Assembly: GCA_002734085.1 (NCBI GenBank)
Contig: NVXV01000001.1
Coordinates: forward strand, 159,783 to 223,782
Reading direction: 5' to 3'
From: Fluviicola sp.
Lineage (GTDB): Bacteria > Bacteroidota > Bacteroidia > Flavobacteriales_D > Crocinitomicaceae
Length of the DNA stretch: 64,000 bases
Numbering within the stretch: position 1 is the stretch's first letter; each line of letters starts with the position of its first letter. Position numbers and translations under genes: made by a program. Below the pieces are notes generated by a model that saw nothing but the letters and a program-made list of their open reading frames with translations, searched no databases and was not told the DNA's origin. Below are positions 1-28,583 of the stretch, in pieces.

Positions 1-463
1 GATAAGAAGACTTGTGACCTCGTATTTCATTATGAACTTCTTTTGGCCCATCCAAAGAGATGAAAAGTTCATTTAAACCTCCTGCAATAAGTTCATCCGC
101 CTTTTGGCGTAAATTTAGTGCATTGGTTGTGATGGAAGTAAACAGGTTCGCCTTATTTGCATAGTCCAATGAATCAAATAAACTTGGATAAATCAGAGGT
201 TCTGTAAACGCATAACCCAACTTTGTGGTTGGAAAATATTTCTTAGTCTGATCAACAATATTTTGAAACAATTCAATGGGCATATTGATTGGATGCGTAC
301 CCACTAAATTCTGAGCGAAATTGGTTTCTAAATTTTTGGTTCCAACATCACACATTTTACAATGCAAATTACAAATATTATTAACTCCTAAAACTAACCA
401 TTGTGGAGAATAGTACAAATGTTTAGGCCAGAACTTTCTGTTTACAGATTTTAATTTATTCAT
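1..463 (-). CDS. radical SAM protein (partial; 3' end runs off the window start)
   Basis: Minus-strand translation from the ATG at 461-463 reads MNKLKSVNRKFWPKHLYYSPQWLVLGVNNICNLHCKMCDVGTKN... CNLHCKMC is a CxxxCxxC radical-SAM cluster motif. It is absent from the ORF track because it is incomplete. Its start overlaps the stop of the upstream gene by 8 nt. Confidence 0.75.
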   Translation of the reverse strand, partial: MNKLKSVNRKFWPKHLYYSPQWLVLGVNNICNLHCKMCDVGTKNLETNFAQNLVGTHPINMPIELFQNIVDQTKKYFPTTKLGYAFTEPLIYPSLFDSLDYANKANLFTSITTNALNLRQKADELIAGGLNELFISLDGPKEVHNEIRGHKSSY

Positions 464-1130
464 AGGGCTCTATTTCATAAATGATATTCCATTCTTGCAG
501 TTTTTTCTTTCGATGGACTTCTTTTAAGGTCAATTTGTTTTCATCTGCCAATCTAGTTATTTCTTCAATTTGACAATCCTCCGATAAAATCATGAAGACC
601 GTATAATCCATCTCTCCTTTATTGAGTCCCGCAAATAATCGTTTAAAATAATCAAAATCTTCACCACAGTAAAATGCTGCATCGCGATTGTTAAAGACAT
701 CTTTTGGATAGTATGGAGGATTAATAAGTATTAAATCTATCTTCTTAAGATCAATTTTTTCAAAAAGATTTGATTCAACTACTTCAATGGGGATTTGCAG
801 TTTTTCACTATTTAACTTTAACCCTTCAATGGCATTTGGATTGATATCAGAAGCCGTCACCTTTGCTTCAGAGTGCATTGCCAAGTAAAATGAAATAAAC
901 CCACTTCCAGCACCCAGCTCTAAAACTCTTTTATTTTTTAATTCCTTCGAGGATATGAAGTCGAGTAGAATATTGGTTGACAAAAAGTACCCAGGATGAA
1001 ATACCTCAGGCAGAATAGTCAATTCTATTCCCTTGTTTTTATAAGTTCGTGCCTTTGCATTATTCTTTTCATACCACTTCGACAGAAACGGATAAAATAA
1101 CTTCTTTATTTTTCCTCTCATGGCTTTCAT
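456..1130 (-). CDS. class I SAM-dependent methyltransferase, small-domain/HemK-like with NPPY motif
   Basis: SAM-binding motif VLELGAGSGFIS and LILINPPYYP. NPPY is typical of N-directed (amino/amide) methyltransferases. There is a 4-nt overlap with the upstream B12-rSAM gene. Confidence 0.75.
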   Translation of the reverse strand: MKAMRGKIKKLFYPFLSKWYEKNNAKARTYKNKGIELTILPEVFHPGYFLSTNILLDFISSKELKNKRVLELGAGSGFISFYLAMHSEAKVTASDINPNAIEGLKLNSEKLQIPIEVVESNLFEKIDLKKIDLILINPPYYPKDVFNNRDAAFYCGEDFDYFKRLFAGLNKGEMDYTVFMILSEDCQIEEITRLADENKLTLKEVHRKKKLQEWNIIYEIEPYE

Positions 1131-2638
1131 TCTGCGTAAAACCCTTGCTCTTCTGGTTGTCTATATTTCCAAATCTTAAGTAAAGCTTTTAATTCATATG
1201 GAAAATGATAAAACCCCGTATGATATCGCCATGAAGCCAAGGTCCTTATTAAAACTCTTTTCCAAGAATGAATTTTATAGTCAGAAGCGGTTGGATAATA
1301 AGCGTTTAAGACTGTTTCGAAGTTTTGTATCTTCTTTACGTTTGCAGGTTTCAACCAAGGAGTAAGCGGATTTTTTCTTAAATCAAATTTTTCCCAAGCC
1401 GGTGAAAGCCAGTCTTCCAATTTTTCTGGAAACGAAAAGCCTTGCTCTGTAATTGTTTCATATAACTCACTTCCCTCAGTAGGAACGGGGCTATATAGGT
1501 AAATAATAATTTCAGTATTCGGATTTATTCTTTTGATCTCTTTAATAAAAGCTATATCCTGATCAATTTGATCTTTCACTTTTTTAGGATCGTCTCCTGG
1601 CATCCCAAGAACAAAACTATATTCTGGCACAATCCCAATTCGCTTCATGCGCGCTGCAAACTCTTTTATTTGTTTCCCTGACTGCGTTCCGCCTTTATCC
1701 ATTGCCTTTAATACTTCGTCATTGCCAGTTTCTGCACCGAGAAAAATCATTTTAAGACCGGCTCTTTTTAACAAAAACAAGTCGTCATCAGAGTATTTAT
1801 TAATTGTGTCAATTCTTCCTTCTCCCCACCAAGTAATGTTTGCGTTTTCAATTTTTTCCGCAAGTTCAACCACCCGTTTTCTGGCAGTGAAAAAATTATT
1901 GTCGTGAAACTCTACGGCATCGATTCCATGCTTTTTTTTCATCGTTAGTAGATCTTCAGCGATTCTGTCTGCAGACAATCCTTTCCACTTTGTGTTGTAA
2001 ATCGGCACAACAGCACAAAAAGAACAAGTGAATGGACAACCAAAACTGGAATGATAGCCCAATGTTTTATTTCCCAAAAATGTTTTAGAAAGGTAACTTT
2101 CTATTGGATAATACTTCCCTAACGTTTCGTACGGAAAGTCAGGGATATTTTTCATATCGGGAATAGCACTCTTTTTGGTTTTGATAACTTCACTGTCTCT
2201 AACGTAAATCAAGTTTGGAATCGAGTCAAAATCTTTCGATCCTTCCTCAATTTTAGTAACAAACGCTTCAAACATATCATCACAAGGACCATCAATAATA
2301 TAATCTACCCATCCAGAATCAAGGACACTTTTATATTGGTTCGAAGCAAAATAACCACCCCAAATAATTGTAAGATCTGGGTATTTTTCTTTAATGAACT
2401 TTGTAATTGGTATGGCTTGTTTTAACTGAGGACCAGGCATTACAGTAAGTCCAAAAACTATTGGTTTTTCCGACTCAATTAATGAAATAATTCTTTCCTG
2501 AGGGTCTTGTTCTGCATTTCCATCAACGAACACTGGCTCATATTTCCCCCTTAAAGCCCCTCCAACTTGTAATATTGAATTAGGAATTCTATGATTAGAG
2601 TCTGCGCTGCGTGGATTAAAAAGTAATACCTTCCTCAT
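1127..2638 (-). CDS. B12-binding-domain radical SAM protein
   Basis: 503 aa. The N-terminal Rossmann-like region (VLLFNP...GLTVMPGPQL...IIWGGYFAS) is followed by FGCPFTCSFCAV (CxxxCxxC). Confidence 0.85.
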   Translation of the reverse strand: MRKVLLFNPRSADSNHRIPNSILQVGGALRGKYEPVFVDGNAEQDPQERIISLIESEKPIVFGLTVMPGPQLKQAIPITKFIKEKYPDLTIIWGGYFASNQYKSVLDSGWVDYIIDGPCDDMFEAFVTKIEEGSKDFDSIPNLIYVRDSEVIKTKKSAIPDMKNIPDFPYETLGKYYPIESYLSKTFLGNKTLGYHSSFGCPFTCSFCAVVPIYNTKWKGLSADRIAEDLLTMKKKHGIDAVEFHDNNFFTARKRVVELAEKIENANITWWGEGRIDTINKYSDDDLFLLKRAGLKMIFLGAETGNDEVLKAMDKGGTQSGKQIKEFAARMKRIGIVPEYSFVLGMPGDDPKKVKDQIDQDIAFIKEIKRINPNTEIIIYLYSPVPTEGSELYETITEQGFSFPEKLEDWLSPAWEKFDLRKNPLTPWLKPANVKKIQNFETVLNAYYPTASDYKIHSWKRVLIRTLASWRYHTGFYHFPYELKALLKIWKYRQPEEQGFYAE

Positions 2639-2860
2639 AATTTGTAAAAATATTCATTTCCTTCGAACAAAGAAATTAAACTGTCTGGTATTACTCTCCT
2701 TAGATTCAATAATCAACGCTTTAGTGGAAAAATCTAACGTTTTTGAAATATATTAAAATTTGATAGTTTAGATAGAAAAATAAACTTTATCCTTGTAAAG
2801 GAGATTATTCAATCTTATTGCTTAGATAAACGCAAGAAGATACCTGAAAGTACACAACTT

Positions 2861-4285
2861 ATGATTAGCAAAGTCAGCTCCTTAAATAAATACATCGTCC
2901 CCCATTGGTTGGTGTTTTTTCTCCTTGGTGGAGGTCTGTTCGTTGTTTTCCATTTTTTCTTGGGTTTTAACGGACTTTATGGTCAGGATAGTCATGCTTA
3001 TTATCAGTATAGCTTAAAAATAAAAGAAATGCTCCAGGGATCTGAAGATGAACTAGGGTACTTTTTTTGGCCCAAGCTCTATCCTTTTTTTGGTGCTCTG
3101 ATTGGACTAACGGGAGTTCCCGTGCTTTTTAGTTTGAAGCTAATCTCCTTACTCTCTTTCATTGGAATCTTAACCTACATCAATAAGTTAATTCAGCTTT
3201 ACCACAAAAAAAATGGGATTCTGTTTATATTAATAGCAGCAGCCACTCAAATTTATTTCTTACGCGGTGGTTTTTTAGTTATGTCTGACATGTTAGCTGC
3301 ATTTTTCTGCATTTTTGCTTTTTATCAATATAGTTTATATGCTCAACAAGGTTTGTTTAGAAATGTAGTATTATTCTTTGTTGCAGCAATTTTAGCCTTT
3401 TTCACGAGATATCCAACTGGCGTATTATTATTTATTCCTGCAGTAGCAATGAGTTACTTAATATTTAAAAAGTCAAGTGTGTTAATCCGTTTGATAATTG
3501 TTTTAGGTTCAGTTGGATTGATTTGGTTTTTAATGGTATTTAATAGTAATTTTCTAAATAGTTTAAATCACCTTATTGGAACGTGGAGTCCATCGCACAT
3601 TTTTTCTAGAAATTTTAAAACTCCTGATGGAGTCAGTGAACACCTCGTTCCTAACGGTATGTATGCCTTTGGTAATTTTTTCCATTTTGGTTATTTGTCT
3701 TTTGGCTCTTTACTTATACCATTTTATAAAAAACTGAAAAACGCTAAACCAGTTCTTGTAACGAGTATTATCTTTTATTTACTCTTCTTGGCTGGGCATG
3801 AAACGCAAAACTATCGTTTCTTGTTAATTGTGCACCCCTTTGTACTACTTCTACTTTTCCATGCCCACTCTTCTCTCAAAAGCTGGTTGAAAGAAAGACG
3901 TTTATTTTTTCTATTTATAATTGGCGTTCTGCTATTTAACGTTGGGTTTGCATGGTATTCATTTCGAAAAATATACAAGGTTCACGCTATTGAAGTTGAA
4001 ATCACACAACGTGTAAAAAATGAAAATTACGAAGGACTAATCTATAGTTTCTATGTCGATCAATCCTTTAAATCATATGGTTTAGACAATGAAGTAAAAA
4101 ACTTCTTTTATGAAGATTATACTCATTTTGAAAAAGGGGCACTTGTGATATTTAACAAAGACCAATTTGAAAATCAATGGGCAGAGCATCGAGTAATGCA
4201 AAATTGGATCCGATTGAAGAAAAATTATCACTTAGATACAGTAAGTCTACATACCAACAACTGGATTATATATCGAATCAAATAA
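2861..4285 (+). CDS. polytopic membrane protein, probable GT-C fold (ArnT/PMT, GT39-like) glycosyltransferase
   Basis: 474 aa with more than 10 hydrophobic segments. The first loop after TM1 reads GLYGQDSHAYYQYS, resembling the acidic loop of GT39/GT83 enzymes. The gene is followed by a GT4 gene. Confidence 0.5.
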   Translation: MISKVSSLNKYIVPHWLVFFLLGGGLFVVFHFFLGFNGLYGQDSHAYYQYSLKIKEMLQGSEDELGYFFWPKLYPFFGALIGLTGVPVLFSLKLISLLSFIGILTYINKLIQLYHKKNGILFILIAAATQIYFLRGGFLVMSDMLAAFFCIFAFYQYSLYAQQGLFRNVVLFFVAAILAFFTRYPTGVLLFIPAVAMSYLIFKKSSVLIRLIIVLGSVGLIWFLMVFNSNFLNSLNHLIGTWSPSHIFSRNFKTPDGVSEHLVPNGMYAFGNFFHFGYLSFGSLLIPFYKKLKNAKPVLVTSIIFYLLFLAGHETQNYRFLLIVHPFVLLLLFHAHSSLKSWLKERRLFFLFIIGVLLFNVGFAWYSFRKIYKVHAIEVEITQRVKNENYEGLIYSFYVDQSFKSYGLDNEVKNFFYEDYTHFEKGALVIFNKDQFENQWAEHRVMQNWIRLKKNYHLDTVSLHTNNWIIYRIK

Positions 4286-4349
4286 GCACATAGCGATTAT
4301 TACACCGGGGTTTCTTAAAAATGATCGGGACACAACCTGTATTCCTGCT

Positions 4350-5294
4350 TTGTACTTGTTTGTTGAGGCTTTGATTTCTAATGGTTGTACAGTTACTGTA
4401 TTTACAATACATTATCCATATACGTTGATCGAATATCAATGGAAAGGCGCTCGTGTAGTTCCGTTAAATGGAGCAAACAGTGAACTTAAGAAAAGGATTT
4501 CTCTTTACTCTAGGCTTAGAAAAGCTTTTGATCGAATTCACAATACTCAACCTTTCGATTTAATCCACGCTTTCTGGCTGAACGAGGCTACGCTATTTGG
4601 GCAAAAGCTAAGTTTAAAACATAATATTCCAATTTTAGCCACTGCAATGGGGCAAGACGTATTAGATTCTAATCGGTATAAAAAAAGGGTGCTTTCTAAA
4701 AATATTCCTATCGTTGTTCTCAGCGAATTTCATTCAAATTTTATCAGTAAGCGAAAAACAGAAATCATTCCTTTTGGGGTAAAGAAGGAAGTAAGAAGTT
4801 TAGAAAAAAACAACGATTTAATATTTATCGGAAACCTGATTAAATTAAAAAGTCCACAATATTTTCTTGAATTATGCAAAACATTGAAGAATGAGAATTT
4901 AAAAATCAAGTTAATCGGTTCTGGACCAGAGGAAACTAAATGTTTGGCTTTTAAGGAAAACCATAACCTGACCAATGTTAAAATTATGGGGCAATGTGAT
5001 TACGAACAGACACAATCCTATCTAGCCGCTTCGAAAATACTTATCCATTGCTCTTCGTTTGAAAGTTTTGGAATGATTTTCATAGAAGCCATGGCGAAAG
5101 GTGTTCACATTTTAACAAACCCTGTAGGTTTTGCATACAGAAACGCTGATGTACATGATTTAACTTTTGATTTAAAAAAGGATGCAGAAAAAGTCAAACA
5201 GCTTTTAGACCTACCTCCTCCTAATCCTAAAGCTTATTCAGTTGAAGCAACTGTACATGCCTATGAAAAGCTTTACTCCTCTTTGTATACTTGA
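4350..5294 (+). CDS. glycosyltransferase family 4 (GT-B); true start probably upstream of the ORF-track TTG
   Basis: C-terminal GT1/GT4 signature SFESFGMIFIEAMAKGVHILTNPVG (E-x7-E-like). The same frame is open from 4245 and encodes KHIAIITPGFLKNDRDTTCIPALYLFVEAL, a typical GT4 N-terminus, but has no ATG/GTG/TTG there. Confidence 0.8.
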   Translation: MYLFVEALISNGCTVTVFTIHYPYTLIEYQWKGARVVPLNGANSELKKRISLYSRLRKAFDRIHNTQPFDLIHAFWLNEATLFGQKLSLKHNIPILATAMGQDVLDSNRYKKRVLSKNIPIVVLSEFHSNFISKRKTEIIPFGVKKEVRSLEKNNDLIFIGNLIKLKSPQYFLELCKTLKNENLKIKLIGSGPEETKCLAFKENHNLTNVKIMGQCDYEQTQSYLAASKILIHCSSFESFGMIFIEAMAKGVHILTNPVGFAYRNADVHDLTFDLKKDAEKVKQLLDLPPPNPKAYSVEATVHAYEKLYSSLYT

Positions 5295-6013
5295 ATAATA
5301 GAGAAAGGTGATTGATCAGGATTAAATAAACGTCCAATTTTAGAAGGTGAATATATGACCTTATGCTTTGGGAGTTCTCCCCATGTTAAATGTCTATAGT
5401 AAGAAGCAGCTTCTGGTTCATTCAATTGATTAAAATAAATCTCTGTACGTTGTTTGGCTGAAACAACTTCATTGTCATTGTAGAAATGAGAGTCCATGAT
5501 AAAAATTTCGCCCTTATTTTGAAGTTTTGAATTCAATAGCGTCCAAAAACTTTCAGATAGATTGAAATAATGAAGACTCGCATTGAATATTATACTGTCG
5601 TAGACCGAATCTTCCAGAAGAGAGAGGTCATCACAACAAATAAACCTTAAATCATCATGTTGAAAGCATCTTGCAGCTTGTTCAAGCTCCTCCTTTCCAA
5701 CATCTACTGCATCTACTTTAAAGCCAAAATTAACCAAAGTGTTTGCAAACCACCCGTTTCCACAACCAATTTCTAGAATCTTTAGTTTATTTGTTTTTTT
5801 TAAAATCTCAAGAATCTTTTTTAACGAATGAATTCTTTTTTTCCATTCCTTATAATGCGGATGTTGCACCAGGACATTTGGAAGTGACATGACGATTTCA
5901 TCAGATAACCATCGCTCTTCTTTCTCCCGAACTCGAGAATAGATAGCTTCAAAATCCTTTTTCGGTTCAGTCAAATAGAAAACGTTATTTATCTCATTCG
6001 CTTCATGTTCCAT
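5273..6013 (-). CDS. class I SAM-dependent methyltransferase
   Basis: KILEIGCGNGWFANTL motif I. There is a 25-nt overlap with the upstream B12-rSAM gene. The 3' end overlaps the convergent GT4 gene by 22 nt. Confidence 0.8.
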   Translation of the reverse strand: MEHEANEINNVFYLTEPKKDFEAIYSRVREKEERWLSDEIVMSLPNVLVQHPHYKEWKKRIHSLKKILEILKKTNKLKILEIGCGNGWFANTLVNFGFKVDAVDVGKEELEQAARCFQHDDLRFICCDDLSLLEDSVYDSIIFNASLHYFNLSESFWTLLNSKLQNKGEIFIMDSHFYNDNEVVSAKQRTEIYFNQLNEPEAASYYRHLTWGELPKHKVIYSPSKIGRLFNPDQSPFSIIQVYKEE

Positions 6014-7341
6014 AACGCCACCTTTTGTTTAATCTTCGGAAGTAATTTTCCTGTTTTATTAGCTTGCCAACCATTCATTAAATAGCGAATCGCATTGTTA
6101 TAGTAGCTATCTGAATAAGGCAATTCAAATCGAATGTCTCTATCGCTTGAAGTCGTCCATGGCAATGGGTCAATAATTCCTGATTCAACTTCATCATATA
6201 AGTCGGTCCCTTTAATCGGATAAGCCTTTGTAAGTGTCAGCACGCTTGGATTACACCGTTCAATATGCTTCATGGTTTGCAGAATGTCCTCATGCTCTTC
6301 TTCTGGGTATCCTACCATAATAAATGTTCCAGCTTCAATACCTAATTTTTGAGCCAGACGAATAGTTGACTGTACGGTTTCTACATCAACCCTACGATCC
6401 ATTTTGTCAATTATTCGTTGTGATCCACTTTCCGCACCAATCCAAATTCTAAAACAACCCATCTCTCTTAGTTTTAAGAGTATATCTTCATTTAAGCGCT
6501 CTGCTCTTGAAATACATTCGAAGTCAATTTTTAAATCCGCTTGTATAAACTGCTTATGTAATTTTGAAATCCACTTGTGGCTTACTGTAAAAACATCATC
6601 CACGAACCATAGTGCCTCAACATCATATGCTTTGCGCAAACCAATTATTTCTTCAACCACTCTTTCTGGCGAATTTCTCCTATAGCTTTGTCCATAAACC
6701 GCAGTACTACACCATTTACAGGTATATGGACAGCCTCTTTGCGTACTTATGTTAAGCGTTCGCTTACCATGATGTTTCTGCCATACACTTAGGTATTTTT
6801 CCATATCAATCGCATCGCAATCTGGAAAAGGAAGTTCTGCGATTTCTTTAATCTTTAACCGTTCCGCATTTTCGTGAGGTACACCCTCTTTCAAATAAGC
6901 TATGCCCTGGATGTTGTCAATTTTTGAGTTAGATCCTAGGGCCTCACAAAGCTCCAACATCGTTTGCTCTCCTTCTCCAATTACTGCAAACTCAAATCCA
7001 GCTTTAAGATAGTTTTCAAGATTATAACGAACATCTGGCCCTCCAATAACAAGTCGACAATCAGGTAACTCTTTTGCCACCCAATCTCGAATTTGTAATA
7101 AGGTAACTTTAGTAACAAGATTGGAATAAAAAGCTAAAATAGAGGGCTGCTCTTCTAAAATAGCGTTTTGCCATTCTTCTCGACTCATAAACGTACTATC
7201 AACTACCGAAACACGTTTTTTATGTTTTTTCAGATAAGCTGAAATATATAATAATCCCAAAGTTGGGTAAGGTCGCATTATACCCTTTTCCTTTTCGTCC
7301 TCATTGAGAAAATACCCATGCGTTAAAACTACTTCTTTCAT
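5989..7341 (-). CDS. B12-binding-domain radical SAM protein
   Basis: 450 aa with RGCPYTCKWCS (CxxxCxxC). The N-terminal domain is paralogous to the 8100-9527 product (HGYFLNEDEKE..RPYPTLGLLY versus HSYFLFFDKKQ..KPYPPLATIQ). Confidence 0.85.
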   Translation of the reverse strand: MKEVVLTHGYFLNEDEKEKGIMRPYPTLGLLYISAYLKKHKKRVSVVDSTFMSREEWQNAILEEQPSILAFYSNLVTKVTLLQIRDWVAKELPDCRLVIGGPDVRYNLENYLKAGFEFAVIGEGEQTMLELCEALGSNSKIDNIQGIAYLKEGVPHENAERLKIKEIAELPFPDCDAIDMEKYLSVWQKHHGKRTLNISTQRGCPYTCKWCSTAVYGQSYRRNSPERVVEEIIGLRKAYDVEALWFVDDVFTVSHKWISKLHKQFIQADLKIDFECISRAERLNEDILLKLREMGCFRIWIGAESGSQRIIDKMDRRVDVETVQSTIRLAQKLGIEAGTFIMVGYPEEEHEDILQTMKHIERCNPSVLTLTKAYPIKGTDLYDEVESGIIDPLPWTTSSDRDIRFELPYSDSYYNNAIRYLMNGWQANKTGKLLPKIKQKVALWNMKRMR

Positions 7342-7342
7342 C

Positions 7343-8107
7343 TTAATTTTTCTTGAGCACGATTAAATAATGATCTGCGTAGTTAGCTAAGAAACGAAAA
7401 GAAAAAAGTTTATCCAAAAATTCAAGAAATTTCATGAGTCTATTTTTGTTCTTAAACCTATTGGCTAAATATGATGGAGGCACAAATAATCCAATCGGGT
7501 AGACACCTTCTGTTTCAAATTGTGAACCCACAAAACTCTTAGTTTCTTTTGGTGAATAATACCAAGTTTTAACTGGAACCTGGTCCACATTTACTTCAAT
7601 GAATGATTCTGTATTTCGACGATTTCTTTCTTTCCATTTTCCTTTTAAGATGAGAAAAACTCGATCCCAAAAGCATTTTTTACCCATAATAACCAATATC
7701 ATTCTTCCGTGAGAAGGCAATTGTTTATAGACATCGCAAAAGAATGTCTCTAGCTCGTCTGTTGATAAACAATTCAGCCCTCCAAAATTAGAAAACAGCA
7801 AATCATAGTTCTCTTCATATTTTTTAATCTCAGTAATATCAAATGTTTTGAAATCAATTTCTGGGAACTTTGACTGTGCTAACTCAATCATTTTGGGTGA
7901 AATGTCAGTTGATTTCACTGACTTATTCAAACCCGACCAACGTTTGGCGTCTTCTCCTGTACCACAATTAACCTCAAGAACATTTTGATGTCCCTCAAGA
8001 TTTATTTTTTTAATATTATGCCATACAAGGTTGCGTTGAATAATTCCAACTGAAGAAAACGTAAATTTCTCATCATATGAAATTGCCGCTCCATCAAAAT
8101 CACTCAT
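7343..8107 (-). CDS. class I SAM-dependent methyltransferase
   Basis: VLEVNCGTGEDAKRW motif I, then DLLFSNFGGLNCL. There is an 8-nt overlap with the upstream rSAM gene and a 1-nt gap to the downstream rSAM gene. Confidence 0.8.
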   Translation of the reverse strand: MSDFDGAAISYDEKFTFSSVGIIQRNLVWHNIKKINLEGHQNVLEVNCGTGEDAKRWSGLNKSVKSTDISPKMIELAQSKFPEIDFKTFDITEIKKYEENYDLLFSNFGGLNCLSTDELETFFCDVYKQLPSHGRMILVIMGKKCFWDRVFLILKGKWKERNRRNTESFIEVNVDQVPVKTWYYSPKETKSFVGSQFETEGVYPIGLFVPPSYLANRFKNKNRLMKFLEFLDKLFSFRFLANYADHYLIVLKKN

Positions 8108-9527
8108 GATTTCGTAATTTTATATTTAGAGTTAAAGATTTTAATCCATTATAAGGTAATAGTGCTACATATCGCCAAGCCACTTTCTTATTACCATTAA
8201 GTATTTTACTCAGTCCTTGTTTCCATCTAAACCAATGATGAACATACCTTTGTAATACTTTATAATACGCAGACGAATATTCTCCTACAAACATTAGATC
8301 GAGATCATCAGAATCCTTCCAGTTGGCTTTTTCATTTAGTTGATCTTTTACACGTTCATAAAATAGCGTACCAGGTAACGGATAAGAAACGGAAATTCCG
8401 ATATCATCGGGTTTATAGTTCTTCACCATTTCAATGGTACTGTCTATGTCCTTCTTGTCCTCTCCAGGGTATCCGAATTGAAGGAAATAAGCCACTTTCA
8501 CTCCTTTTCTTTGCAGTAGTTCTGTACTTAATCTGATTTGCTCTAAGGAAGTGCCTTTATCCATTGCATCAAGGATTTTTTGCGATCCGCTTTCAGCACC
8601 AATCCACACCTCATCCAGACCAGAAGAGACAAGCGCATCAATCGTATCATCTTTAAGCAGCAGATCCGCACGGCTTTGAATCATATATGGAATTTTCAGC
8701 CCTTCTTTTTGAAGTTCAACATTAAACTCCTGGACCCAATTTGGTTTCAGTCCAAAAATATCATCAGCAAACCAGATGTGATCAAACGAAAACAAACTTT
8801 TTATTAACTTCATTTCAGCCACAACATGTTGAGGACTTCTCGAGTTATATCTCGTACCATAAATTGGCTTTGCGCACCAATTGCATTTAAAAGGGCATCC
8901 TCGTGTTGTTGCCATGTTAATTGAGAAATACCCATGTTTCTCCCAAGCCTTTTTATAGGGTGTTATATCTATTAAATCCCATGCAGGCAAAGACAAGGCG
9001 TCAAGATTAGTAAGTATTTTTCTACTTTTCGTTTGGACAACTTCACCATCGATCTTACAAGCTATTCCATCAATGTCATTTGTTTTTTTTCCCTCGCGAA
9101 GTCGCTCTAAAATTTCAATTAGGGTCTCATCTCCTTCACCCATAAGTATTTCATCGGCACCTTGACCTAAATACTTCTCAAAGTGATCTGTCGAGTCACT
9201 AGAAGACACAATCACATGAATCCCTCTACTTTTTGCCTCTTGAATCATTTGAAATGCCGCTTCTCTCATATTGGTGAGGCACATTTTTGTCAAATAATTA
9301 AAATCATCATCATAAAGCACTAAGACGTCAGGCTTATAGTTATCCAGTTTAGCGTTTATCGCATCTGCTTTTTCCACAAAAGAAACATCAAAAAGATCAA
9401 CATCAAACCCTTTACTTCTCGCAGATGAAGCCACCTGAATTGTTGCCAAAGGAGGATAAGGTTTTCTTTGGTCCCATTGTTTTTTATCAAAAAAAAGGAA
9501 ATAACTATGACTGAATAATAACTTCAT
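8100..9527 (-). CDS. B12-binding-domain radical SAM protein
   Basis: 475 aa with TRGCPFKCNWCA (CxxxCxxC) after an N-terminal Rossmann-like domain (DVLVLYDDDFN...HVIVSSSDSTD). Confidence 0.85.
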   Translation of the reverse strand: MKLLFSHSYFLFFDKKQWDQRKPYPPLATIQVASSARSKGFDVDLFDVSFVEKADAINAKLDNYKPDVLVLYDDDFNYLTKMCLTNMREAAFQMIQEAKSRGIHVIVSSSDSTDHFEKYLGQGADEILMGEGDETLIEILERLREGKKTNDIDGIACKIDGEVVQTKSRKILTNLDALSLPAWDLIDITPYKKAWEKHGYFSINMATTRGCPFKCNWCAKPIYGTRYNSRSPQHVVAEMKLIKSLFSFDHIWFADDIFGLKPNWVQEFNVELQKEGLKIPYMIQSRADLLLKDDTIDALVSSGLDEVWIGAESGSQKILDAMDKGTSLEQIRLSTELLQRKGVKVAYFLQFGYPGEDKKDIDSTIEMVKNYKPDDIGISVSYPLPGTLFYERVKDQLNEKANWKDSDDLDLMFVGEYSSAYYKVLQRYVHHWFRWKQGLSKILNGNKKVAWRYVALLPYNGLKSLTLNIKLRNHE

Positions 9528-10407
9528 CTTGAATGTTCAACATTTTTAATTTTGATTCATAAATTGATAAAACTGTATTTTGAAAATCTTTCGGATGATG
9601 CTTAGACACCCCTCTTTCTGAACGCATGGTTTGATCAAACTTGACCTTTGGGAAGTTAGAGAATTTTCTTTGCCAGCGTTTATAGGTTAATTGCATAAAA
9701 TATATGTCTAATTTTTCACCTAAGTTTTTACTAAATATTTTCTCCAGTACACTTGACCTTTTTTTCTTTTCTAATTGGATTGTAGAGATGTCTAGATCCA
9801 CAGGAGGAATAAAGTTACTAACCCAATTGTTTTGCTTTTTTAGATCGTCAAATAATTCTAGATTGTAAACAGGTAGCAAATAAGCTATTTCGACAGCAGT
9901 AAAAATATTTTTATCTCTAATTTTCAAATTCTTCTCATCTACAAAATAATTCAAACAGAAATATTTTCTTGAGTTCAAAAGGACAATCTTTTTGAATAGG
10001 ATAAGAAGTGTACGACATAACCACATGCGGTTCTCTTGTGTAATTATAAAATAGTCGACATCACCATCTTCGTACATGACATTTTTGGACAATGAACCAG
10101 ATATAGCGATTCCCTTAACAAAAGGAAATTTTCTAATCAAACGTACATAACGCGGAAGTTTACTAAAATACTTACCTGCTTCATCCTCTTTGAATTTTCG
10201 TTGTTCTACGAGTGTTTCGACATCCGAATTGATTGAGACGTAATCACCATGGATAAAACATCGCCTTTCTTTTTCTAAATGCTCAACTTGTTCTTTGATA
10301 ACCTCCACATCACAACTACATAACTGTGCTAGTTCCTTACTTGTCAAAGGATGTTGGAAAACATCAAAATAGGCTAACCATTTTAATATGTGCACGGGAT
10401 ATGACAT
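9505..10407 (-). CDS. nucleotidyltransferase-fold protein with N-terminal winged-helix-like region (first gene of the operon)
   Basis: GIAISGSLSKNVMYEDGDVDYFIIT resembles the GS-x(n)-D-x-D minimal nucleotidyltransferase motif. There is a 23-nt overlap with the downstream rSAM gene. The function is unknown. Confidence 0.45.
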   Translation of the reverse strand: MSYPVHILKWLAYFDVFQHPLTSKELAQLCSCDVEVIKEQVEHLEKERRCFIHGDYVSINSDVETLVEQRKFKEDEAGKYFSKLPRYVRLIRKFPFVKGIAISGSLSKNVMYEDGDVDYFIITQENRMWLCRTLLILFKKIVLLNSRKYFCLNYFVDEKNLKIRDKNIFTAVEIAYLLPVYNLELFDDLKKQNNWVSNFIPPVDLDISTIQLEKKKRSSVLEKIFSKNLGEKLDIYFMQLTYKRWQRKFSNFPKVKFDQTMRSERGVSKHHPKDFQNTVLSIYESKLKMLNIQDEVIIQS

Positions 10408-10542
10408 TGATAAACGTAAATTAGGCTTAAATATATTATAATCATCGCACCTATTGATTGATTATCACGGATAGTTTGATGATTTAGTTTAAAATGATAC
10501 AATTCATTACACAAAACGCTTCCTATTTGAAAATTACAATAA

Positions 10543-11220
10543 TCAAACGCTTGTCTCATTTATCAAATCCAGACACTGTAGTTCAGGCAAATTAAAGCTT
10601 TCGAAAGAATTTGTGTAGTCGTCTAAAGCTAAAGCATGCTCTGTACAGGCAATGATAAAACAGTCCACCTCTGGATAATTGCTTTTTAATCTGTCAAACA
10701 TTTTATTAGCTGCAACAGGATTTGGCGATTCAAAATAAATGATTCGTAATTGATCTATTAAATTAAAATCAGTCTTGTTCGGTGTGATAAATTCAACATC
10801 ATAATCGTCAAATAAACTGCGAAGATAATTACTTTGCATGGTGTAACAGGTTCCTAATATCATTGCTTTTTTAATTTTCGAATCCCAATGATTGATAATA
10901 ACTGTTCCCAATGATATAAAAGGAGTGTTTACTGTACTATTCCGCTTTTGTAAGTCTATTGCTTCATGTAGTGTGATGTTCGCTAAAATAAACCGAGAGA
11001 CATCCAAATCATCCACTTTATGTAGATATGGGAGTAGCAATCTTCCTGCCTTGTCCATTTGATCAGGCAATATTTCGTTGATAGGAGTAAAGGGGATTTT
11101 CATCATTTTTATAGGGACCTCAATACTATTTCCGTGCTTTAGCCTATGCATTTCCTGACACTTTTTCAAGTACCAATTGGCTGCGTTTTCACCTGTTCCG
11201 ATGATTCCTAATCCTTCCAA
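10543..11220 (-). CDS. Asp/Glu racemase-superfamily protein, single-cysteine variant
   Basis: Aligns by eye to aspartate racemases: LGIIGTGENAAN (GILGGMGPLAT), FILANITLHEA (IIMPCNTAHAF), KKAMILGTCYTM and CFIIACTEHAL (CIIAGCTEVSV). The first catalytic Cys position is Asn and the second Cys is retained. Confidence 0.6.
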   Translation of the reverse strand: MEGLGIIGTGENAANWYLKKCQEMHRLKHGNSIEVPIKMMKIPFTPINEILPDQMDKAGRLLLPYLHKVDDLDVSRFILANITLHEAIDLQKRNSTVNTPFISLGTVIINHWDSKIKKAMILGTCYTMQSNYLRSLFDDYDVEFITPNKTDFNLIDQLRIIYFESPNPVAANKMFDRLKSNYPEVDCFIIACTEHALALDDYTNSFESFNLPELQCLDLINETSV

Positions 11221-11221
11221 A

Positions 11222-12169
11222 CTAACGTGTTTTTACAAGTGACAAGGTATAAAACTCTTTGTGATCTAGAAAATGATGTACTGTTTCAAACCCCACCTCA
11301 TTCATCAGTATTTCAACATCGGCTAAACTATATTTTTTAGAAATCTCTGTATGAATCACCTCGTTTTTTGCAAACTGAATCTCTTCATTATCGATCCAGA
11401 TTGATTGTTTCTCTAGGCATACTATATAACTATATGTTCTACCAGAAATTGGGTCATAATATGGGTAGTGATCAAAATTATCAACATTTATTTTACACCC
11501 TAACTCTCTATTCATTCTATGAAGAATATTCAAATTAAATCGTTTTGTGATTCCTTCATCATCATTATATGCCTTGAGAATTGTTTTGGGGTTTTTCTTA
11601 AGGTCGAAAGCAATAAGAATATAGTCTTCCTTGTTTAAAGCGTCTTTTAACAACTGAAGAAAAGAAACCGCTTTTTCGTGCGGAAAATTTCCAATATTAC
11701 TTCCCATGAAAAGCACCAGTTTTCGCTGGTCGGCTGTATTAATTTCTTTTAAGGTTTTAAAAAAATCCCCTGCAATGGGCTGGACAGACAGATGAGGTAT
11801 CACATTCTTTACATTTTTTTCATTTACCTCAAGAATATTTGGTGATATATCCAATGGAATGTAGTGTTCAATAACATTTAAATTATCGCCTACACGAAGA
11901 AGTTCAACCGTTTTTGTGCCATCACCCGCTCCTAGTTCTACAATATCAATTTTTTCTTTATTTCCTTTAACTTTCTCAAAAATATCTGTGCTTTTGTCTC
12001 GTAATATTTCACGTTCACAATCTGGTAGATAATAACTGGGCATTGCCATGATTTCTTGAAAAATTCTATCTCCAATTTCATCGTAAAAATATTTTGATGG
12101 TAGTGTTTTTTGATCTTTACGGAGCCCTTCTAATATATCTCTTTTAAATGCTGTATTCGTCATATTCAA
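11222..12169 (-). CDS. egtD: L-histidine N-alpha-methyltransferase (ergothioneine biosynthesis EgtD)
   Basis: 315 aa. The motifs LPSKYFYDEIGDRIFQEIMAMPSYYLPDCEREIL and VELGAGDGTKT fit the EgtD family pattern. The gene lies 1 nt downstream of egtB. Confidence 0.8.
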   Translation of the reverse strand: MNMTNTAFKRDILEGLRKDQKTLPSKYFYDEIGDRIFQEIMAMPSYYLPDCEREILRDKSTDIFEKVKGNKEKIDIVELGAGDGTKTVELLRVGDNLNVIEHYIPLDISPNILEVNEKNVKNVIPHLSVQPIAGDFFKTLKEINTADQRKLVLFMGSNIGNFPHEKAVSFLQLLKDALNKEDYILIAFDLKKNPKTILKAYNDDEGITKRFNLNILHRMNRELGCKINVDNFDHYPYYDPISGRTYSYIVCLEKQSIWIDNEEIQFAKNEVIHTEISKKYSLADVEILMNEVGFETVHHFLDHKEFYTLSLVKTR

Positions 12170-12170
12170 A

Positions 12171-13337
12171 TTATAGTGATTTAGCCAGTCGAATACCTGA
12201 AAAGATCCAGCGTTCTTGGGCGTGAAAAAAGTTGCGATATGTTTTTCTACTATGTCCTTCAGAAGTAGCGAACGAAGCTCCTTTCAAAACGTGTTGATTA
12301 ACCATAAACTTCCCATTGTACTCACCTAAGGCGCCAGGCTCCTTATTGTAGCCAGGATAAGGCAGGTAAGCAGAATTCGTCCATTCCCAAAGTTGACCCC
12401 AATTCAGTTGATCTGCCAATAACTCCCATTCTGCTTCAGTGGGTAATCTACAACCTTTCCATTCAGCAAAAGCCATTGCTTCATATAATGAAACATGCTG
12501 AACTGGTAAATTGAGGTTTAGTGGTTTCAAGCCGCCCAATGTGTAATTAAACCATTGGTTGTCTTTTTTATGCCAGTATAGAGGTTGTTGAATTTCATTT
12601 TCTTGAATAAAGTCCCAGCCTTCCGACAACCATAATTCATGATTTTGATATCCTCCTTCTTTTATAAAATCTAAAAACTCGCCATTTGTAACAAGGGTAT
12701 TTCGTAAAGCAACATTATGACAATAGGTTTTATGTCTTGGTTTTTCGTTGTCGAAGCAAAATCCATTTTTTGCACCGATTTCATAAACACCTTCTTCTAA
12801 CTGAATCCAAGAAGTATCTCTCTCTTCTTCTGTCTCAAAGCTATCCCCATAAACTGGAAACGTTGGTTGAAAACCTAAGATGAACTTGATATCATAAACC
12901 AAAAGTTCCTGATGTTGTTGTTCATGGTTTAAACCTATCTCAAGTAAGTTGTGTAGCTCTTGATCTCCACCATTTTCAAAAAATTCTTCTATATGTTTGT
13001 TTACATATTCACGATATTCATAGACTTTTTCAACAGACGGCCTAGTCATTAAACCACGATTTGGTCGCAACAAACGTTCTCCAAAATGATTATAGTAACT
13101 GTTAAAAAGATAGCCAAAATCTTCGTCAAAAACAGTGTAGCCCGTTTTATTCGGAACTAAAATGAATTGTTCAAAAAACCAAGTTGTATGTGCAAGATGC
13201 CATTTTGGAGGGGAAACATTTTCCATCGGTTGAGGAACATAATCTTCCGTACTCAAAGGTTTGCAAATCTCCTCTGTATACGACCTTATCTTTTGATAGT
13301 TCAGTACGATTTCTTTTGTTCCTACTTCTAAACTCAT
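12171..13337 (-). CDS. egtB: ergothioneine biosynthesis sulfoxide synthase EgtB (DinB-like plus FGE-sulfatase fold)
   Basis: SPPKWHLAHTTWFFEQF (DinB_2 metal-binding region) and C-terminal LPTEAEWE...WEWTNS...GASFAT...RNFF (FGE/sulfatase-modifying-factor-like). The size (388 aa) fits a short-type EgtB and not OvoA. Confidence 0.8.
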   Translation of the reverse strand: MSLEVGTKEIVLNYQKIRSYTEEICKPLSTEDYVPQPMENVSPPKWHLAHTTWFFEQFILVPNKTGYTVFDEDFGYLFNSYYNHFGERLLRPNRGLMTRPSVEKVYEYREYVNKHIEEFFENGGDQELHNLLEIGLNHEQQHQELLVYDIKFILGFQPTFPVYGDSFETEEERDTSWIQLEEGVYEIGAKNGFCFDNEKPRHKTYCHNVALRNTLVTNGEFLDFIKEGGYQNHELWLSEGWDFIQENEIQQPLYWHKKDNQWFNYTLGGLKPLNLNLPVQHVSLYEAMAFAEWKGCRLPTEAEWELLADQLNWGQLWEWTNSAYLPYPGYNKEPGALGEYNGKFMVNQHVLKGASFATSEGHSRKTYRNFFHAQERWIFSGIRLAKSL

Positions 13338-13615
13338 TTTTCAATTTTTACTCCATGCCAAAAGGCAACATAACTTTTTATCTCTTCAGCTGCTTTTTTA
13401 GGGAAAGGATAATACCAGGCAGCATCTTCATTCACTTCACCATTGACCTGCACATTATAATAATGCGCTTCTCCTTTCCAAGGACAATTCGAAGTCGTAT
13501 CTGACTCCGTAAAATAACTTTTATAGATCGAATCAGGTGGAAAATAATGATTTTTTTCGACTTCTATTGTCTCGTCACTTTCTGCTATGATTTCACCATT
13601 CCAAATTGCTTTCAT
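13334..13615 (-). CDS. DUF427 domain protein
   Basis: 93 aa. KAIWNGEIIAESDETIEVEKNHYFPPDSI matches the DUF427 signature as I recall it. There is a 4-nt ATGA overlap with egtB. Confidence 0.6.
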   Translation of the reverse strand: MKAIWNGEIIAESDETIEVEKNHYFPPDSIYKSYFTESDTTSNCPWKGEAHYYNVQVNGEVNEDAAWYYPFPKKAAEEIKSYVAFWHGVKIEK

Positions 13616-13669
13616 AATATTCTGAATTTAAGAATAGAAACACATTTTTGTGCTTTAATGTTTAAAAAA

Positions 13670-14401
13670 CTATCTATATTCAGGGTTTTCAAAGTTCCAT
13701 CGCTTACCGTCATCCCATTCCTTTCGAGAATTTCCATAGTTTGTATAGCCGTCATTCTTTTTCAACATGGAAGCTAAATGCATAAGGTTATAAGTCATAA
13801 ACGTAGTATTTCTGTTTGTGAAATCATTTTTATACCCTTCTGCCTCTTTGTCAAGATAACTTGGCCCAGGACCGACTTCACCTAACCAACCTGCATCGGC
13901 TTGTGGTGGAATAGAGTAACCAATATGCTGCATGGCATAAAGTAACCCCATTGCACAATGTTTTACACCGTCTTCATTTCCTGTAATGATACATCCACCC
14001 ACTTTTCCGTAGAAAAGGTATTGTCCTTTATCATTTTGCTTTCCACTCATACTATAGAGTCTTTCAATTAGCAATTGTGCTACTGAAGACTTTTCGCCGA
14101 GCCAAATAGGTGTTCCAATAATCAAAATATCAGCTTCAAAAATGCGATCAAATAATTCAGGCCATTCGTCTTTCTCCCAACCGTGTTCTTTCATATCTGG
14201 AAAAACACCCCGAGCTACATCGTGATCTACTAGTCGAATTTCTTCGACTTTAACACCCTCTTTTTCCATGATATCTTTCGATACTTGCATCAAACCAGCG
14301 GTGTGACTTTGCTCTGGTGATTTTTTTAATGTACAGTTCACATAAACTGCTTTTAAGTCTTGAAAATCTGTATTACTCATAGTTATAATGTTAGAATTCA
14401 T
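13670..14401 (-). CDS. flavodoxin-like NAD(P)H-dependent FMN reductase family protein
   Basis: AVYVNCTLKKSPEQSHT...ADILIIGTPIWLGEKSSVAQLLIERL fits the flavodoxin-like fold/NADPH-FMN reductase pattern. Confidence 0.6.
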   Translation of the reverse strand: MNSNIITMSNTDFQDLKAVYVNCTLKKSPEQSHTAGLMQVSKDIMEKEGVKVEEIRLVDHDVARGVFPDMKEHGWEKDEWPELFDRIFEADILIIGTPIWLGEKSSVAQLLIERLYSMSGKQNDKGQYLFYGKVGGCIITGNEDGVKHCAMGLLYAMQHIGYSIPPQADAGWLGEVGPGPSYLDKEAEGYKNDFTNRNTTFMTYNLMHLASMLKKNDGYTNYGNSRKEWDDGKRWNFENPEYR

Positions 14402-14521
14402 AAACTTTGACGAATAAGACGTGTTTTCCTTTCAATGGAATACTAACCCGTTTTTACTAAGATAAGAAATTATAAGATAGCTATTTGGATCAATACTAAA
14501 GAAATATTTAGCCTATCCAAT

Positions 14522-15262
14522 TTAATAGACTAATAAACTCTCTTTTTTCACCCAATAAGTGCGAAGGTCAGGCGTTACGATTTGAATCCATTCTTTTTGG
14601 TCTTGGATAGCAGTTAATCGCATATTCTTCGGTAAATCTCCATCCACCTCTAACCCTTCAGGGCTTAGATAAAGTTCTGTTTTTTCATCAATGGCATATG
14701 CATATCTGTATTGTTCATAATGATTTAAAGCCTCATTAAAACAAAACACGGATATAATTAATACTATTGAAAAAGGAATCACTAATCGTTTTGACATCAA
14801 TTTTTTTGAGCTTCCATTCTTTTGCGATAGTAAAAAATAGGTTGATATTGCAACCATTATACTTGAAATTAACATTAAAATAAACCAAGTAGTATCGCCA
14901 ATACTTAGAACAATTCGCTTGGTCCAGGAATAAGGATGGCTCCAAATAACATCAGGAGAAATTTGTTTCGATGAAAATTTTGCGTTGTATATTGCCTTGC
15001 TATTCGTAGGGTCGTATTTTAAAGCGGCCTCATTTGCCCAAAGTGATTTGACCCACATTTTTTGTTTAGCAAAGGCATAGCCTAAATTATAATATCCTTC
15101 AAATGAAGGGACTTCCTCAATATTTTGAGTGAAATACTCTTGGGCAGAATTATAATCTTTTGTACTTAAAGCCTCTAAACCCTTTTTATAAAGACTATCT
15201 TTTTCTTGAGCAAAACTAATTGCTACAACAGAAAAAAAATATGTGATTAAAAGCAATCGCAT
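14522..15262 (-). CDS. batE: BatE-like TPR/SH3 protein (last gene of the Bat operon)
   Basis: Signal peptide, a TPR-like N-terminal part, a TM segment and a C-terminal SH3-like tail (EWIQIVTPDLRTYWVKKESL). The position is directly after batD. Confidence 0.55.
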   Translation of the reverse strand: MRLLLITYFFSVVAISFAQEKDSLYKKGLEALSTKDYNSAQEYFTQNIEEVPSFEGYYNLGYAFAKQKMWVKSLWANEAALKYDPTNSKAIYNAKFSSKQISPDVIWSHPYSWTKRIVLSIGDTTWFILMLISSIMVAISTYFLLSQKNGSSKKLMSKRLVIPFSIVLIISVFCFNEALNHYEQYRYAYAIDEKTELYLSPEGLEVDGDLPKNMRLTAIQDQKEWIQIVTPDLRTYWVKKESLLVY

Positions 15263-21721: not shown

Positions 21722-21733
21722 ATATTGCTTCTG

Positions 21734-28579: not shown

Positions 28580-28583
28580 ATTT

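Follow-up and report, generated by a model that had tools for sequence, protein, structure and literature searches.

A candidate envelope-glycoconjugate locus rich in radical-SAM enzymes in Fluviicola and other Bacteroidota and Ignavibacteria

Closest described pathways

To our knowledge, B12-type radical S-adenosylmethionine (radical-SAM, rSAM) enzymes that act on sugars are found almost only in antibiotic pathways and in the making of two lipid head groups (HpnJ, Cds). Here we analyze a cluster of rSAM, methyltransferase, nucleotidyltransferase (NTase) and glycosyltransferase genes at positions 1 to 10,407 of a 64,000-nucleotide stretch of Fluviicola sp. DNA (assembly GCA_002734085.1, contig NVXV01000001.1, positions 159,783 to 223,782 of the forward strand), which as a whole is called the window. 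With no better than moderate confidence, we take this region to be the right-hand two-thirds of a modular locus for the biosynthesis of an envelope glycoconjugate; our confidence in any single step of its mechanism is much lower. The genes shown here are real, are co-conserved in Bacteroidota and Ignavibacteria, and lie amid genes for glycan assembly and decoration.

In the HpnI/HpnK/HpnJ series, a glycosyltransferase, a deacetylase and an rSAM enzyme act in turn to remodel a lipid-linked sugar, and calditol synthase Cds likewise works on a lipid-linked sugar (PMC13459092). The locus resembles these systems in the predicted B12-type N-terminal domain of its rSAM enzymes, in having HpnJ as the top match of two of them (rSAM-475 and, in a relative, rSAM-470), and in the deacetylase and glycosyltransferases that its relatives hold. 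However, with HpnJ scores of 133-141 bits against a cutoff of 577.6 these two enzymes are not orthologues, and no hopanoid or tetraether genes are present here. Several rSAM enzymes and three methyltransferases stand against the single rSAM enzyme of the described systems, the deacetylase is of carbohydrate esterase family 4 (CE4, PF01522), and the final transfer would be made by a glycosyltransferase of GT-C type.

Cobalamin-dependent rSAM enzymes that C-methylate sugars are known from antibiotic pathways, namely GenK, GenD1, Fms7 and MoeK5 (PMC12931638). With these and with AprD4, which acts on an aminoglycoside sugar without cobalamin, the enzymes of the locus share a Rossmann-like N-terminal domain joined to an rSAM core and, putatively, carbohydrate carbons as targets. 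Unlike the antibiotic pathways, the locus has no aminocyclitol core genes, and it is phylum-wide and envelope-associated rather than sporadic. AprD4 and ArsL homologues carry a related Rossmann-like domain that does not bind cobalamin (PMC12931638), and for that reason we treat the B12 dependence of the enzymes below as a prediction only.

Two envelope pathways are also comparable. As in the Arn system (ArnC, ArnD, ArnT), a cytoplasmic glycosyltransferase, modification of a carrier-linked sugar and a GT-C transfer at the periplasmic face may follow one another; ArnD belongs to the polysaccharide deacetylase family. In contrast to Arn, the GT-C protein of the locus is only 11-12% identical to ArnT, its partner is a GT4 and not a GT2 enzyme (GT2 and GT87 occur in other relatives), and UDP-sugar enzymes are absent from the locus, whereas Arn has no radical-SAM steps. 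In the A-LPS (A-type lipopolysaccharide) Vim pathway of Porphyromonas gingivalis (VimE, VimA, VimF, WaaL), a CE4 deacetylase beside an N-acyltransferase re-acylates an amino sugar, and VimA belongs to the femAB-like family TIGR03019 (PMC7468200). The Wbp/Vim system is likewise a Bacteroidota envelope pathway with a GT4 enzyme and an O-antigen-ligase-type protein, and relatives of our locus place a deacetylase next to a GNAT acetyltransferase. However, no Wbp genes were seen at the locus, Vim lacks radical-SAM enzymes, and the deacetylase and GNAT genes lie outside the window. We rejected orthology with Vim, since the GNAT protein has no NCBIfam match at all (E <= 0.001) and so none to TIGR03019.

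Conservation and composition of the locus

A scan in which one genome stood for each GTDB species gave at least 561 genomes with relatives of the 503-residue enzyme rSAM-503. For the 80 closest of these we called and clustered the open reading frames (ORFs), giving a neighborhood survey of 81 non-redundant loci. These best 80 relatives are 59-75% identical to rSAM-503 and come from Flavobacteriaceae, Crocinitomicaceae, Cytophagales, Chitinophagales and Ignavibacteria. Three contigs with a typical Flavobacteriales-type locus (L019, L037 and L043) are titled as metagenome-assembled genomes of Verrucomicrobia, Rickettsiales and Bifidobacterium breve; these labels probably reflect mis-binning in the public records.

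The most constant adjacency is rSAM-503 followed by the methyltransferase with the motif NPPY, in 77 of the 81 loci and mostly at a spacing of -4 to 0 nt. The NTase gene precedes rSAM-475 in 28 loci, rSAM-475 precedes MT-254 in 32, and MT-254 precedes rSAM-450 in 37; this four-gene module recurs in about half of the loci. Less frequent are GT-C before GT4 and the SPASM-type rSAM before rSAM-503 (17 loci each), and deacetylase before GNAT (8 adjacencies in relatives). The locus is made of separable modules, rSAM-503 with the NPPY methyltransferase on one side and NTase/rSAM-475/MT-254/rSAM-450 on the other, which rearrange independently.

Among the 54 loci that are fully flanked, 44 have a further B12-type rSAM gene and 45 have at least one glycosyltransferase gene. 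By Pfam, the recurrent glycosyltransferases are GT2, GT87, GT-C proteins of PMT_2 type, GT9 and more GT4s. They are accompanied by enzymes that could decorate a glycan (carbamoyltransferase, 3'-phosphoadenosine-5'-phosphosulfate-dependent sulfotransferases, FkbM and other methyltransferases, a 2-oxoglutarate-Fe oxygenase, Acyl_transf_3, SGNH/AlgX proteins, and a CE4 deacetylase beside GNAT) and by transport and assembly proteins (ABC exporters, Wzy_C, Wzz). Scanning the recurrent neighbors revealed no polyketide synthase or nonribosomal peptide synthetase, phosphoenolpyruvate (PEP) mutase or lipid-synthesis genes, and no conserved precursor-peptide ORF adjoins the genes in the 81 loci. The sequence-only reading had seen no precursor-peptide, polyketide, nonribosomal peptide or sugar-nucleotide gene, and this was borne out.

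Several other assignments were considered. A phosphonate pathway of the Fom3/PhpK kind was rejected, as the recurrent neighbors include no PEP mutase. A pathway for a peptide that is made by ribosomes and then modified after translation (RiPP) was rejected because the sole recurrent small ORF encodes a membrane peptide of about 50 aa beside the carbamoyltransferase. This ORF (…KKRKFWLFPLLL…GESSVLAPLVYPF) occurs in 10 loci (for example L005 12241-12396 and L030 7382-7531) and is not RiPP-like. Anti-phage defense was also set aside, PADLOC yielding only generic, superfamily-level matches to rSAM and methyltransferase domains; no phage carriage of the locus was found in IMG/VR. Consistent with the earlier view that the gene order maps to no characterized pathway, no protein of the locus attains any curated NCBIfam cutoff, and full-text literature searches, with most subscription journals outside their coverage, returned no description of the locus.

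A predicted lipoprotein of about 376 aa lies beside rSAM-450 or rSAM-503 in 26 of the 81 loci (for example L013 4316-5446, L020 8770-9894 and L084 14580-15728) and is absent from the window. All 26 copies carry an invariant AGKPxKC(M/L)WCHE with a CxxCH c-type heme site, and searches of Pfam, NCBIfam and the PDB gave no match for the protein. A role as a substrate, or as a redox partner in the periplasm, is conceivable.

The suggestion that the cluster extends beyond the left edge proved correct. We used L001, whose rSAM-503 is 84% identical, as a proxy for the DNA left of window position 1. It contains all ten genes in unchanged order, followed by a complete 356-aa SPASM/twitch rSAM, a fourth B12-type rSAM (470 aa, rSAM-470), an arylsulfotransferase-family protein, the CE4 polysaccharide deacetylase, an SGNH/AlgX-like protein, proteins with Wzy_C and Wzz domains, and GNAT. 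The Wzy_C and Wzz domains occur in L001 and in L003, in the part that matches the DNA left of the window. Compared with a Wzy locus, no Wzx, initiating transferase or nucleoside-diphosphate-sugar gene was recognized; relatives repeatedly contain a polytopic protein of 387 aa that has no match in Pfam.

Strains differ in which modules they carry. An independent assembly, L085, shares the arrangement of the window at 99.4% identity. In L084, blastn identity to the window is 97.4% from position 8064 to 17492; this strain keeps the NTase gene and rSAM-475, but past the stop codon of rSAM-475 its interior is swapped for a different set of cassettes (L084 12342-20903), with the breakpoint at ~8064, within the 5' end of MT-254. 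The new set consists of a methyltransferase/rSAM-503-like pair in inverted orientation (nucleotide identity 69%), a protein of 382 aa, a B12-type rSAM of 467 aa, a GT87, an rSAM of 465 aa and a GT9. By analogy, surface-polysaccharide loci of the O-antigen type typically have a kept flank next to an interior that is swapped.

All four rSAM genes of the window encode the Pfam Radical_SAM domain (PF04055), with 58-78 bits (cutoff 29.5) for the three B12-type enzymes, whose CxxxCxxC motifs lie at residues 201, 204 and 211. The earlier description of these three as B12-type paralogues held in part. They are related, and their sequences mark them as old, divergent paralogues: rSAM-450 and rSAM-475 are 30% identical, and rSAM-503 is 22-27% identical to either. 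The B12-binding domain PF02310 is above its cutoff in rSAM-503 and rSAM-450, whereas rSAM-475 falls below it (27.5 vs 32.1 bits). The further claim of repeated, iterated cassettes did not stand, as the methyltransferases are mutually unrelated past the class I fold (pairwise E > 0.02) and the cassettes are not duplications. Divergent rSAM enzymes paired with unrelated methyltransferases indicate that the recurring rSAM-plus-methyltransferase arrangement is a long-standing theme of gene architecture and did not arise by duplication of a cassette.

rSAM-503 is the best conserved gene of the locus, with more than 7000 homologues and ~190 invariant positions in its alignment, including a C-terminal RQPEEQGFY-x-E. 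The top NCBIfam families of the rSAM enzymes (BchE, HpnJ, PhpK, ApyD, QCMT and a "ladder" lipid rSAM) score 90-145 bits against cutoffs of 360-750. BchE (TIGR02026) is the top match of rSAM-503, with 127 bits against 481, and leads for rSAM-450 with 145 bits, before ApyD (141), PhpK (138) and HpnJ (121.5), all far under their cutoffs; BchE scores span 127-145 bits and no photosynthesis genes lie near. For rSAM-475 the top match is HpnJ (TIGR03471) with 141.5 bits against 577.6, the other two enzymes reaching 121.5 and 114.4 bits, and hpn genes are absent from the 81 neighborhoods. Nor do the scores place the enzymes in the PhpK/Fom3 type (97-138 bits vs 600, with no PEP mutase among the scanned recurrent neighbors) or among RiPP C-methyltransferases (TIGR03975 and ApyD, 75-141 bits vs 282 and 750, with no conserved small ORF adjoining in the 81 loci).

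The solved structures nearest to the B12-type enzymes are AprD4, the glutamine C-methyltransferase QCMT (PDB 9CCB; PMC12931638), OxsB, TokK and CysS, all of them weak matches. AprD4 is the best or second-best match of all three (E-values 1e-11 to 1e-15); it follows QCMT (E 2.5e-17) for rSAM-475 and leads for rSAM-450, before QCMT and OxsB. The non-B12 rSAM fragment at the left edge is, with 91.6% identity over all its 154 aa, the orthologue of the 356-aa rSAM of L001, which has a PF13186 SPASM match yet only five C-terminal cysteines, more like a twitch domain (NCBIfam twitch model, 65.7 bits vs cutoff 170); it stays under every NCBIfam cutoff.

By Pfam, the three methyltransferases are all class I, one MTS/HemK-like and two of Methyltransf_11/25 types. 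HemK, RsmC, N6AMT1 and METTL5 are N-methyltransferases. They are also the nearest solved structures of the NPPY enzyme, HemK being the best; in addition, the enzyme matches a PDB chain labelled as an apramycin biosynthesis N-methyltransferase. It has the NPPY motif within an MTS fold, as HemK/PrmC do, and so agrees with the earlier suggestion of an N-directed enzyme; we predict from these features that it is an N-methyltransferase. It is no PrmC equivalog (TIGR03534, 67.3 bits vs 199; all NCBIfam matches of PrmC/HemK type are below cutoff), and its 224 residues lack the HemK N-terminal domain, the alignment beginning at about HemK residue 120. MT-246, present in 23 of the 81 loci, has a weak Pfam NodS match (24.8 bits), NCBIfam scores below cutoff and generic PDB matches. 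For MT-254 the match to CMAS is weak (27.7 bits), and the PDB matches, including 3ccf, are generic.

The 474-aa polytopic protein has Pfam matches to Alg9-like (GT22) and PMT_2 that are below threshold. Its AlphaFold model, built on 43 homologues, has a pLDDT (predicted local distance difference test) of 91.3, and in Foldseek against the PDB all its top matches are GT-C enzymes: ALG12 (E 1e-6), ArnT (TM 0.61), PglB, ALG9 and STT3, each of these five with probability 1.00, and also Pmt4 and Emb/Aft. G41-Q42-D43 and D143 are invariant across the 43 homologues, with the invariant Asp in the first loop. As modelled, then, the protein has the GT-C fold that had been proposed from its sequence, and it is predicted to use a polyprenyl-phosphate-sugar donor. 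All characterized GT-C enzymes known to us use polyprenyl-phosphate-linked donors.

The GT4 assignment is clear (PF00534, 72.2 bits vs cutoff 26.4). Its frame is open from 4245 and has no ATG, GTG or TTG until the TTG at 4350, whereas the conserved N-terminal strand KHIAIITPGF is encoded before this, at 4284-4313. Flavobacteriaceae relatives have ATG or TTG 5-6 codons before the HI motif. At the equivalent position, nine Crocinitomicaceae-type loci, including the window (4272-4274, overlapping the GT-C stop), have ATC; one locus has ACC there, with GTG as the next codon. The true start is probably the non-canonical ATC at 4272, and the comparison suggests either an AUC start or coupling by termination and reinitiation. 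Because the Tyr-Arg codons of the GT-C gene overlap the ATC and constrain it in part, this evidence is suggestive only.

The first gene of the NTase operon had been described as encoding a nucleotidyltransferase-fold protein, and this is supported by homologues and model alike. The Pol-beta motif G104-S105 ... D116-x-D118, which carries the catalytic residues, is invariant in 38 homologues. The AlphaFold model (pLDDT 85.9) has a winged-helix domain, an NTase alpha/beta core and a helical C-terminal domain. Foldseek returned no full-length match for it and weak partial ones to winged helix-turn-helix regulators, DrrA, MNT and ANT(9). A 100%-identical protein is named 'nucleotidyltransferase' by NCBI.

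A possible pathway and competing explanations

We favor an envelope glycan because of the glycan-gene neighbors, the GT-C fold, the strain-level swapping and the precedents of HpnJ/Cds and AprD4. In such a pathway, a cytoplasmic sugar, probably an amino sugar, would be held on a carrier, perhaps polyprenyl phosphate or else a nucleotidyl handle that the NTase attaches. The carrier-linked sugar might then be remodelled by rSAM-475, MT-254, rSAM-450 and MT-246, with a separate modification by rSAM-503, the NPPY N-methyltransferase and the twitch/SPASM rSAM. In the radical steps, unactivated carbons could be C-methylated, or a ring could be contracted or rearranged in the manner of HpnJ, Cds or OxsB, and the class I enzymes would contribute O- or N-methyl groups. 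GT4 and GT-C may then attach the product, at the periplasmic face, to an acceptor, which could be a surface protein, lipopolysaccharide (LPS) core or some other glycolipid. The left-hand genes of L001 (rSAM, arylsulfotransferase, CE4 and GNAT, SGNH/AlgX, Wzy_C, Wzz) might add sulfate and acyl groups and carry out ligation or polymerization; in relatives, accessory sulfation, acylation and carbamoylation are conceivable.

In its most specific form, the proposal is an undescribed envelope glycoconjugate of Bacteroidota and Ignavibacteria, whose core sugar is carbocyclized and/or C-methylated by up to five rSAM enzymes while carrier-linked and is diversified between strains by glycosyltransferases and sulfo-, acyl- and carbamoyltransferases. 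HpnJ/Cds-type chemistry would thereby have moved into a GT-C pathway that decorates the surface. Stated in such detail the proposal is speculative and unlikely. Such a glycoconjugate could be a missing anchor or receptor glycan, for example for cargo of the type IX secretion system or for phages.

Several observations weigh against an envelope glycan. The window and L001 have no sugar-nucleotide synthesis gene, initiating phosphoglycosyltransferase or recognized Wzx flippase. The rSAM-503/methyltransferase pair stands alone among unrelated genes in a few genomes (L079, L035, L040), and the rSAM enzymes are far better conserved (50-65% identity) than the glycosyltransferases (25-46%). The NTase fold is Pol-beta and differs from that of sugar-1-phosphate nucleotidylyltransferases, and given its winged-helix domain this protein could be a regulator. 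Every NCBIfam score is 3-5 times under its cutoff, all family assignments are at superfamily level, and the survey covers only the 80 closest relatives, with crude ORF calls.

The sequence-only reading had offered an envelope lipid, a glycan or a small molecule as the substrate. The neighborhood favors a glycan or glycolipid among these, and a plain lipid or a free small molecule less so. We consider it unlikely that the B12-type enzymes instead methylate or cyclize the hydrocarbon of a membrane lipid (polyprenoid, acyl or ether), as do HpnP/HpnR, Gmm and ladderane-type enzymes, with the glycosyltransferases adding the head group only. It is true that rSAM-450 and rSAM-475 match TIGR04072 'lipid biosynthesis B12-binding/radical SAM protein' with ~113 bits and HpnR with 94-101 bits, that MT-254 is weakly CMAS-like, and that this rSAM architecture is common among lipid-modifying rSAM enzymes (PMC13459092). 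However, these scores are far under the cutoffs of 360 and 650 bits, the recurrent neighbors include no fatty-acid, isoprenoid, squalene or glycerol-ether genes and are dominated by sugar-decorating enzymes, and strain-level swapping of cassettes is unusual in core-lipid pathways.

Slightly harder to credit is a small molecule akin to an aminoglycoside, a cyclitol or a nucleoside, whether secreted or cell-associated. The set of NTase, rSAM enzymes, N-methyltransferase, GT4, deacetylase, GNAT and carbamoyltransferase resembles aminoglycoside pathways. Its twitch-type rSAM is comparable to BtrN, AprD4 is a top-two solved match for all three B12-type enzymes, and the apramycin N-methyltransferase chain matches the NPPY methyltransferase; moreover, the carbamoyltransferase and ABC exporters recur in relatives. 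Nevertheless, neither 2-deoxy-scyllo-inosose synthase, inositol synthase nor aminotransferases were seen, the GT-C, Wzy_C and Wzz proteins, embedded in the membrane, point to envelope assembly, and it is atypical of an antibiotic cluster to occur in at least 561 species and to keep 60% identity from one phylum to another.

Modification of a protein or peptide is more doubtful again. Here rSAM-503 and the HemK-like methyltransferase, perhaps with the other rSAM enzymes, would C- and N-methylate residues of the Gln/Asn type, as QCMT, PoyC/PoyE and PrmC do, and the glycan genes would be mere neighbors. QCMT is the nearest solved relative of rSAM-475 (PMC12931638), the nearest relatives of the NPPY methyltransferase are N5-glutamine methyltransferases, and the ApyD and RiPP C-methyltransferase models score 83-141 bits; the rSAM-503/methyltransferase pair is also very strongly conserved and can stand alone. 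However, no conserved small ORF lies beside the pair in the 81 loci, the scores are far under the family cutoffs, and the pair sits amid glycosyltransferases in 45 of 54 full-length loci. Genes for a protease, leader recognition (RRE) or a RiPP-type exporter do not recur.

Chance juxtaposition or an assembly error without any shared pathway, which a metagenome-assembled source and separable modules might suggest and which the earlier reading had named as a way for its cassettes to fail, is refuted by the same gene order in L085 and L001, by overlapping start and stop codons, and by adjacencies co-conserved in the 81 loci across several orders and two phyla.

If the envelope-glycan assignment is right, the locus puts three to five B12-type rSAM enzymes in an apparent surface-glycan pathway shared by hundreds of species of Bacteroidota and Ignavibacteria, among them cultured strains from marine and freshwater habitats. 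This would mean new envelope sugar chemistry (C-methyl or carbocyclic sugars) in an ecologically dominant phylum, would tie envelope structure to cobalamin supply and would provide a strain-variable, O-antigen-like marker. The superfamilies are known. For the pathway and its product there is no curated model, nor is there one for several of the families involved (rSAM-503, the NTase, the GT-C subfamily). What is new is most likely radical-SAM tailoring inside a GT-C-type envelope glycan locus that is widespread in the FCB (Fibrobacteres-Chlorobi-Bacteroidetes) group. The rSAM-503/NPPY-methyltransferase pair, 60% identical across phyla and without a curated family, is a well-defined target for enzymology.

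Gene map and flanking genes

The ORF map that we recomputed for positions 1 to 10,407 matched the coordinates, CxxxCxxC motifs and overlaps of the sequence-only reading base for base (Table 1), including the 4-, 25- and 8-nt overlaps and the 7341/7343 junction. One minus-strand operon runs from 10407 to 5273 (NTase, rSAM-475, MT-254, rSAM-450, MT-246) and a second from 2638 past the left edge (rSAM-503, the NPPY methyltransferase and the first 154 aa of the non-B12 rSAM), with the plus-strand GT-C and GT4 genes between them. The 3' end of GT4 overlaps MT-246 convergently by 22 nt (5273-5294). As its gene overlaps both adjacent genes, the NPPY methyltransferase is probably translationally coupled to them.

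Table 1. Features at window positions 1 to 10,542
Feature	Position	Strand	Basis or remark
Non-B12 rSAM fragment, 154 aa, CNLHCKMC	2-463	minus	Runs off left edge; Pfam Radical_SAM 47 bits
HemK/MTS-like class I methyltransferase, 224 aa, NPPY at residue 137	456-1130	minus	Pfam MTS PF05175 59 bits
rSAM-503, 503 aa, FGCPFTCSFC	1127-2638	minus	PF04055 58 bits, PF02310 39.7 bits
Divergent intergenic region, 26% GC	2639-2860		Composition
GT-C-fold glycosyltransferase (modelled), 474 aa, polytopic	2861-4285	plus	AlphaFold and Foldseek; Pfam below threshold
GT4 glycosyltransferase, 314 aa from TTG 4350	4350-5294; likely 4272-5294	plus	PF00534 72.2 bits
MT-246, class I methyltransferase, 246 aa, Methyltransf_11/25 type	5273-6013	minus	Pfam; last gene of operon
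rSAM-450, 450 aa, RGCPYTCKWC	5989-7341	minus	PF04055 78 bits, PF02310 41.4 bits
MT-254, class I methyltransferase, 254 aa, Methyltransf_25, weakly CMAS-like	7343-8107	minus	Pfam
rSAM-475, 475 aa, RGCPFKCNWC	8100-9527	minus	PF04055 71.5 bits, PF02310 27.5 bits
Pol-beta-type NTase, 300 aa	9505-10407	minus	First gene of operon; NTP_transf_2 PF01909 20.2 bits (cutoff 21)
AT-rich region 5' of NTase gene, 25% GC	10408-10542		Composition

The divergent intergenic region, in which we found no conserved small ORF, is presumed to hold the promoters of the rSAM-503 and GT-C/GT4 operons. An Rfam scan of the window gave no match, cobalamin riboswitch included, and no tRNA was found. The locus ends on the right at 10407, and the AT-rich region that follows marks this boundary and is presumably the site of the NTase operon promoter. 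The right flank (10543-13615, minus strand), which is not conserved beside the locus in L001, contains an Asp/Glu-racemase-like gene, EgtD (317 bits), EgtB (DinB_2 and FGE-sulfatase domains) and DUF427. These genes form a set of ergothioneine type, EgtD being a histidine-specific methyltransferase; we rejected a link to the locus given the lack of conservation in L001. Farther out, between the positions corresponding to window 13629 and 13671, L084 has an extra insert (L084 3827-6779) with TauE, a 173-aa protein and a pyridine-nucleotide-disulfide oxidoreductase. Positions 14522-22756 (minus strand) hold a Bat/MoxR aerotolerance-type operon that encodes a MoxR AAA_3 ATPase, DUF58 and DUF4381-like proteins, two VWA proteins, a TPR protein, BatD and a TPR/SH3b protein; this operon, too, is not conserved beside the locus in L001. 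At 23718-29765, also on the minus strand, the gene for a TonB-dependent receptor is followed by those for a protein like HTTM/vitamin-K-dependent gamma-carboxylase (272 and 166 bits), for an imelysin of family M75 and for a DUF4856 protein, which together probably form a metal-uptake cluster.

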